This document shows positions 46,192 to 60,750 of a DNA stretch of 64,000 bases, piece by piece. Each line of letters opens with the position of its first letter. The stretch's first letter is position 1. The position numbers and the translations under genes are program-made. The notes beneath the pieces were generated by a model. The model saw only the letters and a program-made list of their open reading frames with translations. It did not search any database and had not been told where the DNA came from. The DNA lies in NCBI GenBank assembly GCA_905236845.1, contig CAJOQM010000040.1, positions 28,050-92,049 on the forward strand, given 5' to 3'. The DNA is from an uncultured Lachnospiraceae bacterium. Lineage in GTDB: Bacteria; Bacillota; Clostridia; Lachnospirales; Lachnospiraceae.

Positions 46192-47178
46192 ATGAAATTA
46201 AAGTTATTCGGAAAAAAATCTATAGCGGCACTTTCTGTTGTATTCTGCCTTGCTGCAGGATGCGGCTTTTCAAGCGTTACCCTTGATGACGCATATGATG
46301 TATTTGACACTTCCTCTGCATACGGCATAGGATCGGAGCCTGTTGCGGTATTTGGATTCTCTTCGGATATCGCTGTTCCCGAAAGCGATACTATTGACAA
46401 CGATGCCGTAGATACGGGATTGGCGGAGGCTTCTTTAATTTGTGATCTTAGTACAAATAATATACTTTGTTCAAAAAATGTATATGAACAGCTTTATCCC
46501 GCCAGCACCACAAAGATTCTGACAGCCCTTGTGGTATTGCGGAATTGTTCGGACCTTGATGCGACGCTTACGGTAAGCGAAAACGCCCTTGCCCTCGAAA
46601 CAGGCTCCTCCGTAGCCGGGCTTGCAGTAGGAGATGTGATCACCGTACGGGACGCCTTATACGGGATGATGATGGCTTCGGGTAATGACGCCGCCGTAGC
46701 TCTTGCGGAATATATAAGCGGTACAACATCTGCATTTGCAGACCTTATGAACGATACCGCAAACAGCATAGGCGCTACGAATTCACATTTCGTAAACCCG
46801 AACGGACTTCATGACGCAGATCACTATACAACAGCATACGATCTCTATCTTATATTTAACGAAGCCATTAAGAACGAAACATTTTACGATATAGTAACAT
46901 GCAGGGAATATTCCGCATCATATCAGGATTCGACGGGAGCTTCGGTGTCAAAGACCTGGAATTCCACCTGCAGATATATGGCAGGTACTGCCACAGCCCC
47001 GGATAATGTAACTGTCCTTGGGGCAAAGACCGGTACAACCAGTACAGCCGGATCCTGCCTTGTGCTGCTTTCGGAAAATGCCTCCGGAAAGAAATATATA
47101 AGCGTAGCTCTTGGCGCCACCACAAGGGATGATGTATATTCCCTTATGAATCAGCTTATGTCGCTGGAAAATGAGTAA
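46192..47178 (+). CDS. D-alanyl-D-alanine carboxypeptidase (serine-type, PBP5-like) lipoprotein
   Basis: Lipobox LAAGC. SxxK PASTTKI, SxN ASGNDAA and KTG GAKTGTT. Confidence 0.9.
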   Translation: MKLKLFGKKSIAALSVVFCLAAGCGFSSVTLDDAYDVFDTSSAYGIGSEPVAVFGFSSDIAVPESDTIDNDAVDTGLAEASLICDLSTNNILCSKNVYEQLYPASTTKILTALVVLRNCSDLDATLTVSENALALETGSSVAGLAVGDVITVRDALYGMMMASGNDAAVALAEYISGTTSAFADLMNDTANSIGATNSHFVNPNGLHDADHYTTAYDLYLIFNEAIKNETFYDIVTCREYSASYQDSTGASVSKTWNSTCRYMAGTATAPDNVTVLGAKTGTTSTAGSCLVLLSENASGKKYISVALGATTRDDVYSLMNQLMSLENE

Positions 47179-47184
47179 ATTAAC
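47176..47184. repeat. Left copy of the 9-bp direct repeat TAAATTAAC (target-site-duplication-like), containing the dac stop codon
   Basis: It is identical to 47453-47461 and abuts the left inverted repeat. Confidence 0.6.
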
Positions 47185-47452
47185 CGGATGAACGCATCAA
47201 CTTCTCCGGGTGGTTATAATATTTAATCACTTCGTATAAATAATATGACACCAACCCGCTTCACTACCTTTCTCTCGCAGTGTCGCATTCGGACGGTGCT
47301 TTGGCTCGCATTGCCCCGTAGCTTCGCGTCGCACCGCCGCACGACCCTGCGAGAGTGCAGTCGTTCGCAGCGGTTGCCGTCATATTATTTATACGAAGCC
47401 ATTTATATTTTGATTGATTACCGCCCGGAGAGGTTGATGCGTTTGTCCCGAA
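47185..47452. mobile_element. MITE-like non-coding element / long rod-like structured RNA
   Basis: Terminal inverted repeats 47185-47215 vs 47420-47450, with 25 contiguous pairs at 47190-47214/47420-47444. A perfect 20-bp inner stem at 47230-47249/47379-47398. A GC-rich core with nested stems 47272-47280/47347-47355 and 47294-47299/47330-47335. Flanked by the 9-bp direct repeats. No ORF with an RBS. Confidence 0.55.
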
Positions 47453-47461
47453 TAAATTAAC
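47453..47461. repeat. Right copy of the 9-bp direct repeat TAAATTAAC
   Basis: Identical to 47176-47184. Confidence 0.6.
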
Positions 47462-47548
47462 TTTTATCTTGTGTTTTGTCTGAAAAAAATATATAATGAT
47501 TGTGATAACTTTAGCAAGGGGAAACCTGCACACAAGGAGGGTACTGCC

Positions 47549-47968
47549 ATGGTTCAATTAATCATCGGTGCAAAAGGAAAAGGAAAGACAACATACCTGT
47601 TGGATGTTGTGAGCAACAATCTGGACAAATCCACAGGCAATTGCGTTTACATCGACAATTCTCAAAAACACATGTATGATCTTTCAAACAAGATACGTCT
47701 TATCAATTCCAGCGAATATTCCCTTAAAAATAAATACGAATTTATGGGTTTTATATGCGGCATAGCATCCGCCGATAATGACCTTGAATATATATATATT
47801 GATAATTTGTGCGTTCAGGCTTCTATGGCCGTGGATGAACTTGAAGGAATCGTCCTTCGAATGGATGAAATAGGCAAGCTTTTTGATATTAATTTCGTTG
47901 CTACTGTAAGCGCTACGGAAGATCAGATTACGGAGACTGTAAAGCCTTTCCTTTTTAAATCACTTTAA
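47549..47968 (+). CDS. Small (139 aa) P-loop NTPase of unknown function
   Basis: AAGGAGG RBS (47534-47540) before the ATG at 47549. Walker A GAKGKGKTT and Walker B-like YIYIDNL. No other recognisable domain. Confidence 0.65.
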   Translation: MVQLIIGAKGKGKTTYLLDVVSNNLDKSTGNCVYIDNSQKHMYDLSNKIRLINSSEYSLKNKYEFMGFICGIASADNDLEYIYIDNLCVQASMAVDELEGIVLRMDEIGKLFDINFVATVSATEDQITETVKPFLFKSL

Positions 47969-59964: not shown

Positions 59965-60750
59965 ACATTTCTTTACTCCTGCAGGTTAATGTAATCAAGG
60001 AGGTGCGCTATGAAGAATAAGCATTTAACCCTTAGTGACCGTATCACTATTCAAGAGATGTTAGAACGAAACCAGAGTTTCAGAGCTATAGCAAAAGCTC
60101 TTGACAAGTCAGTAACCTCAATTAGCCGTGAAATCAGGCGAAACCGCTATAAAAAGTCAAAAGCAAACTTCCGTGCGCTATGTGTAAAAACCACAGATTG
60201 CAGGCTGACGCATCTGTGTGGTGATGATTCCTGCCGTAATTTTTGCGCTCAATGCATGGAGGTCTGCAACACGGATAAATGTCCTGAATACGAGCCAAGA
60301 ATATGTCCCAACCACAACAACGCTCCTTTCGTATGTAATGGCTGTGATGAGGAAAAGCGTAGGCAATGCCGCTACGAACGCTACTACTACGATGCCCGGT
60401 TAGCACAATCTGCATACGAAAAGACATTAAGCTCATCAAGAGAAGGCGTATCCCTGTCGGTTGATGAAATGGAGCGCATAATACCACAGGGAAAGAATTT
60501 CGATATCCTTCAACAATCCGATGCTGATTTGATAGCCAATAACATAAATAGCTATCCGAGAGTAAATCTTAACAATACTACTCCATACAAACTTGCCGAA
60601 CTATTGATAGGAAAACCATTTTTAGAAAATCTTGGGTACTATGAAATAAGTAGAGATGAGGTTATCTTAAAGCCCTCACTACTGGATAAAAGATTAAGAT
60701 AGTCAAAAAACTAATAACTACCGATAATCTTGCAGGAGTAAATGAAACAT
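59965..60750 (+). mobile_element. Internally deleted IS30-family insertion sequence (non-autonomous derivative)
   Basis: Inverted repeats TTTACTCCTGCAGG (59972-59985) and CTTGCAGGAGTAAA (60729-60742) flank a 230-aa ORF that has the IS30 N- and C-termini but no DDE core. The outer boundaries are approximate. Confidence 0.6.
60010..60702 (+). pseudogene. IS30-family transposase lacking the catalytic DDE domain (in-frame internal deletion)
   Basis: N-terminal HTH (LTLSDRITIQEMLERNQSFRAIAKALDKSVTSISREIRRN), a Cys-rich segment, then a direct jump to the family C-terminus (IPQGKNFD..INSYPRVNLNNTTPYKL..ILKPSLL). Confidence 0.6.

Follow-up and report, generated by a model that had tools for sequence, protein, structure and literature searches.

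An insertion behind the dac gene

In a 64,000-nt stretch of DNA from an uncultured rumen Lachnospiraceae bacterium (the window, to which all positions refer) a 268-nt foldback element was found directly behind dac, a D-Ala-D-Ala carboxypeptidase gene. [quoted passage not shown] Insertion took place in an A+T-rich target directly at the stop codon of dac and gave rise to a 9-bp duplication (TAAATTAAC), and both the dac open reading frame (ORF) and the downstream promoter were left intact. Based on sequence searches, the family appears to be previously undescribed and was found, among the species searched, only in this one uncultured rumen species; the kind of repeat is well known. We do not read the element as a dedicated regulator, but as a well-known kind of bacterial "junk" repeat. 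For annotation, the 370-nt spacer behind dac is an insertion and not a regulatory leader or a small RNA gene. The window lies on contig C40 of a metagenome-assembled genome (MAG, G000) of this species that comprises 1.96 Mb in 135 contigs and is 94.6% complete, and the nearest named relatives of this genome are rumen "Eubacterium sp." and Lachnospiraceae MAGs. Copies on other contigs are named here by their contig.

The features of the focal copy are collected in Table 1. The TAA of dac (47176-47178) lies inside the left flanking repeat without alteration of the dac ORF, and the flanking repeat extends to GAGTAAATTAAC / GAATAAATTAAC with 11/12 identical positions. The outer stem has 25 contiguous paired positions (47190-47214 with 47420-47444), the three non-Watson-Crick ones all being G-U on the plus strand, and the focal arms pair over 31 bp. 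Further in lie the perfect 20-bp stem and a nested core stem (CTCTCGCAG / CTGCGAGAG), and the G+C content is 64% in the core and 38% in the arms. An earlier interpretation made from the letters alone (the sequence-only reading) had described the identical 9-mers, the three G-U pairs, both inner stems and the G+C-rich core, and all of them were present as it had stated. Folded as plus-strand RNA, the 268 nt gave an almost unbranched rod of -135.3 kcal/mol (z = -14.0), and the minus strand gave -139.2 kcal/mol (z = -13.0); 0/200 shuffles folded as well as the element, which puts the fold far outside chance expectation. A consensus scan detected no promoter-like or terminator-like site within the focal copy, and there was no U-tract after the stem at 47445-47461. 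The promoter-like site of the downstream operon stands just outside the right duplication, untouched by the insertion, and was not listed by the consensus scan, its first hexamer having only 3/6 matches.

Table 1. Features of the focal copy and its flanks, in window positions
Feature	Position	Strand	Basis
dac (D-Ala-D-Ala carboxypeptidase gene)	46192-47178	+	Pfam Peptidase_S11, E = 7e-48; ORF list
Left 9-bp target-site duplication, TAAATTAAC	47176-47184		Sequence; single motif copy in congeners at the same site
Foldback (rod) element, 268 nt, family form A, sense relative to dac	47185-47452	+	Fold; multicopy; other assemblies
Left terminal inverted repeat and outer helix arm	47185-47216	+	Terminus fits consensus YRGGAYAAAYGCATCAAY, followed by a variable compensated segment
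Inner helix, left arm (perfect 20-bp A+T-rich stem with 47379-47398)	47230-47249	+	12-15% divergence across copies
G+C-rich asymmetric core/apex, 64% G+C	47257-47371	+	Best-conserved part of the family, 0-10% divergence
Inner helix, right arm	47379-47398	+	Pairs with 47230-47249
Right terminal inverted repeat and outer helix arm	47417-47452	+	Sequence, arm alignment
Right 9-bp target-site duplication, TAAATTAAC	47453-47461		Sequence
Promoter-like TTGTGT-17-TATAAT of the downstream operon	47469-47497	+	Read from sequence; same spacer layout in congeners
Downstream 139-aa P-loop protein gene	47549-47968	+	Present at this position in 10/10 congeners

Empty sites and target duplications

The orthologues of dac and of the P-loop protein gene are adjacent in all 10 of the 10 other species of the genus. 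The spacer between them is 370 nt here, compared to about 85-120 nt in most congeners and about 230 nt in the congener G009. When 277 nt (the element plus one 9-mer) are subtracted, 93 nt remain. In the nearer relative G003 the dac stop reads GAGTAAATT, and the site reads GAGTAAATTGTCTTG..., where the target motif occurs once and the same promoter region comes next. A second empty site was found between rpsT and a gene for a 267-aa protein, where the spacer of 604 nt, minus 376 nt (a 367-nt copy plus 9 bp), comes to 228 nt, in comparison to about 229 nt in the relative G006. The sequence-only reading had called for a search for empty sites in relatives, and sites of matching size were found at two loci, with the single motif in G003.

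Of four full copies, three have flanking 9-bp repeats. The focal copy has 9/9 identical positions, the C98 copy 8/9 (ATTTCAAAA / ATTCCAAAA) and the C2/C56 copy 7/9, a weak case because the repeat is a T-run, and none is seen at C86. The 9-bp duplications that the sequence-only reading had proposed to look for at other copies were seen at C98 and, weakly, at C2/C56, and not at C86. The recognisable duplications of the three copies differ at 3/27 positions, which is below the expectation if the 35% divergence had arisen in place (p ~0.009), although these copies were picked because their duplications are recognisable. We infer that the family diversified in active lineages that needed paired arms and an intact apex, and that the present insertions would be younger and decaying neutrally.

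Contigs of this MAG often break inside the family, which would fit a palindrome that arose by misassembly or by chance. However, the identical 268-nt element, with 0-1 single-nucleotide differences, stands at the same site in four other, independently assembled ENA metagenome contigs, which refutes an artefact. With the fold at z = -14 and with copies elsewhere that have different flanks, we give this explanation practically no credence. The focal insertion is fixed among the strains on record.

A repeat family in one genome

In the genome 15 BLAST matches were obtained, and about 20 family loci were found with the element, a reconstructed long form and the terminal motif as queries. The sequence-only reading had seen no second copy within the window, which is right, and the BLASTN comparison it proposed did reveal related loci with different flanks in the rest of the genome. 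The full copies measure 268 nt (C40), 268 nt (C98), 176 nt (C86), 367 nt (C2+C56) and about 470 nt (C46+C101, joined by contig-end overlap), and the 367-nt copy is read through in one independent ENA scaffold. On C12 there is another shortened copy, about 105 nt long. Half copies, left or right, are present at C78, C77, C93, C74, C31, C112, C58, C27, C105, C87 and C94, and solo termini at C32, C54 and C84. The longer copies contain about 100 or about 235 extra apical bases in the core/apex, and the size classes differ by apical loss at short direct repeats, such as TCGCA at the C86 junction. Long palindromes that undergo deletion at their tip are expected to show this pattern. The family thus consists of nested apical-deletion forms plus decayed half copies and solo termini.

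The terminal motif YRGGAYAAAYGCATCAAY was found on more than 12 termini, and the C46/C101 copy forms a subfamily with diverged termini. No ORF is conserved between copies, and the stop-to-stop frames differ from copy to copy. Many copies are located at contig ends, indicating that the repeat breaks the assembly; the about 20 loci would explain many of the contig breaks in MAGs of this rumen species. In most structural respects the family has what defines a MITE: it is shorter than about 500 bp, non-coding and multicopy, and it has inverted termini, empty sites and a target duplication at the focal copy. A parental insertion sequence (IS) was not found in this assembly.

Covariation of the arms

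The arms of the five full copies were aligned with the apical part removed, and RNAalifold predicted 65 pairs on this alignment. Standard pairs made up 92.7% of the aligned cells. Changes on both sides were seen in 22/65 pairs, a value that was reached by 0/500 shuffles, and slid controls gave 35-44% pairing and 3-9 both-side-changed pairs. In the outer helix 18/31 pairs were compensated. Between copies, divergence was 31-40% in the outer helix, 35-37% in the internal loops, 12-15% in the inner helix and 0-10% in the apex/core. The outer helix thus diverges at the rate of unpaired sequence, although within any one copy all but about 6% of its positions are paired.

An alternative to a mobile repeat is that the element is a selected cis-acting structured RNA, that is, a long hairpin in the 3' untranslated region (UTR) that protects transcript ends, provides a processing site, or serves to terminate or insulate transcription between dac and the operon behind it, its mobility being only the means of its spread. 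A conserved core and compensated helices are what such an RNA would show, and the sequence-only reading had taken the strand-consistent G-U pairs to fit a structured RNA transcribed from the plus strand. An A:C mismatch on one strand is a G:U pair on the other, and an RNA selected on one strand is expected to tolerate G:U, to avoid A:C and to evolve mostly via transition intermediates. Among 313 helix cells of the five copies the imperfect pairs were 10 G:U (sense strand) and 11 A:C, and over the whole arms they were 26 G:U and 35 A:C (p = 0.31). About 10 of 17 compensated swaps, or roughly half, were transversion pairs, e.g. G-C to C-G or C-G to A-U, which are impossible via G:U intermediates. 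As neither G:U tolerance nor a transition bias was seen, the arms do not indicate that a strand-specific RNA is under selection. The focal copy does have the three G-U pairs, but they do not characterise the family. The arms covary strongly between copies, and the arm alignment points to a palindrome maintained at the DNA level rather than to a strand-specific RNA.

Further observations do not favour a selected RNA. The outer helix evolves at loop rate, the family is missing from 10/10 congeners, in which the orthologous spacers work without the element, and the forms shortened by nested deletion, like the half copies and the solo termini, have the appearance of decay. There is neither a U-tract at 47445-47461 nor a terminator-like site. 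Rfam 15 was searched at a permissive E-value with the focal copy and six loci with other forms, and no known family matched the element itself; the matches at those loci were only to a neighbouring RNase P RNA, a thiamine pyrophosphate (TPP) riboswitch and a tRNA. Weighing these data with the gene positions given below, we regard a selected structured RNA as unlikely.

Arm haplotypes recur in separate copies: C98 shares one with C87, and C78, C74 and C86 share another. Transposition thus passed the arm variants on, and they did not arise afresh wherever a copy inserted. The 5-7 nt asymmetry of the arms is kept in all copies, which argues that the arms were not re-copied from each other wholesale. 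The family offers a clean and quantifiable foldback repeat, in which the arms evolve approximately neutrally yet stay paired and the mismatch spectrum is strand-neutral. The case separates maintenance of a palindrome at the DNA level from selection on RNA structure, which has seldom been tested for bacterial MITEs.

Position and orientation relative to genes

Gene context was taken from simple ORF calls, with inspection by eye to see that the genes were real. The distance from a stop codon to the start of the copy or half copy is no more than about 10 nt at C40, C98, C46, C77, C112, C58, C12, C27 and C94, and about 45 nt at C31; divergent promoter regions contain three further loci. At 14 loci the flanking transcription had an unambiguous direction, with the element in sense orientation at 12 and antisense at 2 (C86 and C74; p = 0.013). 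Orientation relative to local GC skew was 11:9, and a replication-linked orientation was rejected on this ratio. Both the closeness to stop codons of real genes and the sense bias speak for the structured RNA, and co-transcribed MITE, ERIC and bcr1 repeats that alter mRNA stability are precedents for it (PMC3184786). By analogy, the bias, which is modest and linked to transcription, could reflect selection against the antisense form or an effect at the transcript level. The terminator or insulator role that the sequence-only reading had suggested between dac and the next operon is hypothetical, and the 12:2 ratio would allow some effect at the transcript level. With the sense bias behind stop codons, Lachnospiraceae become one more lineage in which palindromic repeats recurrently occupy stop codons.

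At two loci the left arm takes in the stop and the final codons of the upstream ORF (C77:16850-16880, 346 aa; C46:31450-31470, 480 aa), and the insertions may have rewritten the C-termini of these genes. Four half copies have their truncated, core-side end 2-7 nt from a stop codon, with the outer terminus pointing away (C112:5243-5480, C58:22524-22590, C27:14146-14227 and C74:1861-1978), so that deletions regularly stop at the boundary of the gene. The C86 copy lies antisense between a gene end and the promoter of the TPP riboswitch, which was identified (63 bits) at C86:10047-10154 (locus L011 1310-1417), about 80 nt beyond this 176-nt copy. The C98 copy (G000:C98:46494-46761) is located between a gene for a 359-aa protein and the RNase P RNA gene (RF00010, 291 bits) at C98:46818-47162 (locus L002 1786-2130), 57 nt downstream of the end of the copy.

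Distribution and search for a parental element

The family was searched for outside its host. No match was found in 40 relatives with blastn, in plasmid or phage collections, or in 5,426 complete E. coli genomes with blastn in distant mode. A sequence-only covariance model of the left half gave only chance-level matches in 140 genera of the bacterial family and 10 congeners, the best of them (G009:C84) in coding-like sequence. Exact 18- to 22-mers of core and terminus gave chance matches or none in a collection of genomes from 185,579 species, in JGI metagenomes and in IMG/VR.

Several results weigh against a MITE-type mobile repeat. The 22-nt terminus and the 20-nt core had zero exact matches in the genome, metagenome and viral collections. 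No longer element with the same termini was found in the assembly, where a search with wider-spaced termini gave solo termini only. Eight transposase Pfam families (PF01609, PF00872, PF01610, PF00665, PF12762, PF01797, PF13358 and PF03400) were not found in the 94.6%-complete assembly; the families searched include IS4/5, IS256, ISL3, rve, IS1595, Y1, IS630 and IS1. Conservation is best in the centre and not at the termini, which is unusual for MITEs of the DDE type. The full copy at C86 lacks a flanking repeat, and that of C2/C56 is the weak T-run. There was no insertion polymorphism among the few, near-clonal strains, and look-ups of the flanking proteins returned the same insertion or no record. 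Finally, a 12:2 sense bias without a bias relative to GC skew hints at a constraint on the transcript that a purely selfish DNA would not predict. Since a MAG can lose IS copies, the missing parental IS is absence of evidence and not proof of absence. The claim of the sequence-only reading that the element is a non-autonomous transposon with a 9-bp target duplication gained support from the multicopy loci, the two empty sites and the further repeats at C98 and C2/C56, with no repeat at C86 and no parental IS found.

The genome as assembled looks nearly IS-free for the nine common transposase Pfam families that were searched. The ninth, PF06782 (ISLre2/UPF0236), had no match in the assembly but none in the control genomes either, and is hence uninformative. 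The absence of the rve domain fits a remnant of IS30 without catalytic core that the sequence-only reading had noted at 59965-60750 of the window.

The element might also belong to another mobile class, in which an unknown recombinase or nuclease reads folded single-stranded DNA via the apex, as with attC sites and the ends of IS200/IS605, with no DDE enzyme binding at the termini. Such recognition would fit a centre that diverges by 0-10%, termini and an outer helix that vary freely if paired, and the lack of a detected DDE transposase in the assembly (the PF06782 search being uninformative). However, the direct repeats of 9 bp that flank three copies agree with transposition by a staggered cut, and no Y1 transposase was found. 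No partner gene is flanked by copies, and no recombinase or nuclease domain was detected in the four neighbours scanned with Pfam (DUF5662, VTC, DUF4186 and one without match); the remaining neighbour genes read as ordinary housekeeping genes. The inherited 5-7 nt arm asymmetry also speaks against wholesale re-templating. We consider this class improbable, somewhat more so than the structured RNA. The same doubt applies to the idea of a new mechanistic type, in which folded (single-stranded or cruciform) DNA would be recognised via the G+C-rich apex and inner helix and the outer arms would need only to pair. If it were true, it would explain the compensated neutral drift of the termini, the absence of a DDE transposase and the sense orientation on stop codons, and the partner enzyme would be novel.

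A MITE/ERIC-type mobile repeat is thus the reading we prefer, and its mechanism may be sketched as follows. Arm complementarity would be kept by a process at the DNA level, candidates being a need for folded or paired DNA in mobilisation, templated correction of quasi-palindromes, or both. The conserved G+C-rich apex and inner helix would act in cis, so that active lineages could not do without them. The enzyme responsible for mobilisation probably acts in trans and would be absent from, or unassembled in, this genome, which would be why the copies now look fixed. As most copies closely follow a stop codon and are in sense orientation, co-transcription probably makes them part of 3' UTRs, where they would form long hairpins, and these could affect transcript ends as a by-product.

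Comparison with known repeats

By behaviour, the closest known repeats appear to be ERIC (also called intergenic repeat units, IRU) and bcr1. The family resembles ERIC/IRU in being an imperfect palindrome that forms a long hairpin, lies in transcribed intergenic regions near gene 3' ends and occurs in size variants that differ by insertions and deletions. Hulton et al. (1991) reportedly described a conserved central part in ERIC, a trait also seen in the present family. In contrast to ERIC, which is about 127 nt long, the copies here measure 268-470 nt, and there is no sequence similarity (0 matches in the 5,426 E. coli genomes). The flanks are 9 bp (TAAATTAAC, ATTTCAAAA, ATTTTTTGC) and not TA, and the host is a Firmicute, with the family restricted to one of the species searched. 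ERIC has a TA target dinucleotide at both termini and is reported to affect mRNA in a way that depends on its orientation (PMC3184786).

The family shares with bcr1 that it is an interspersed repeat of a Firmicute, lineage-restricted, with flanking direct repeats and compensatory changes. bcr1 is about 155 bp long, has 5-bp repeats and is known to be transcribed, whereas the present family has a 9-bp duplication and a strand-neutral mismatch spectrum. In the Bacillus cereus group bcr1 is lineage-restricted, has direct repeats and carries compensatory changes that keep the double-stranded structure (PMC3184786).

With classical bacterial MITEs (Correia/NEMIS, RUP, Nezha, Chunjie) the element has in common inverted termini, direct repeats, a multicopy state, the lack of a transposase and a long stem-loop. 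Here, however, no parental IS with matching termini was found, conservation is higher in the centre than at the termini, and the rod extends over the whole length. Classical MITEs are often located at gene 3' ends and fold into long stem-loops (PMC3184786, PMC10969869).

Repetitive extragenic palindromes (REPs) and the mosaic elements built from them (BIMEs) are similar in that they are palindromes that follow stop codons, show an orientation bias and may have hairpin effects at 3' ends. REPs are 20-40 nt long, have no target duplication and are accompanied by a Y1 (RAYT) gene. The present element is ten times longer (176-470 nt), and no Y1_Tnp domain (PF01797) was found in the assembly; a REP/RAYT system was rejected on these two grounds.

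The attC sites of integrons resemble the family in that paired arms are conserved while the stem sequence is free, as recognition of folded DNA would produce. attC sites are 57-141 nt long, have R''/R' boxes at their ends and stand in cassette arrays beside an integrase. An integron attC was rejected, as the ends of the element (...GCATCAAC / GTTGATGC...) do not fit RYYYAAC / GTTRRRY and the neighbours are housekeeping genes. Judged from the sequences compared, the family seems to have two mildly unusual traits, namely a centre that is better conserved than the ends and arms that co-evolve at an approximately neutral rate and strand-neutrally. The impact is modest, since the kind of element is well known.

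Other observations

The 139-aa P-loop protein (47549-47968) had only sub-threshold Pfam matches (AAA_14, ATPase_2), and its orthologues next to dac in the 10/10 congeners are 45-80% identical. In the left half copy at C31:57900-58030 the core is truncated and TTCCTCCCC comes after it. This sequence can pair with GGGGAGGAA, its complement immediately upstream of the arm, so that the fragment still closes as a hairpin with flanking DNA. The solo right terminus at C32:2150-2190 carries a tandem duplication of GATGCGTTT. The sequence at C94:1-170 (GACAGGCGTCGTACGGGCTCG...), behind a DUF4186 gene, is related to the apex of the long form but has diverged strongly from it, and may represent an older or sister subfamily.

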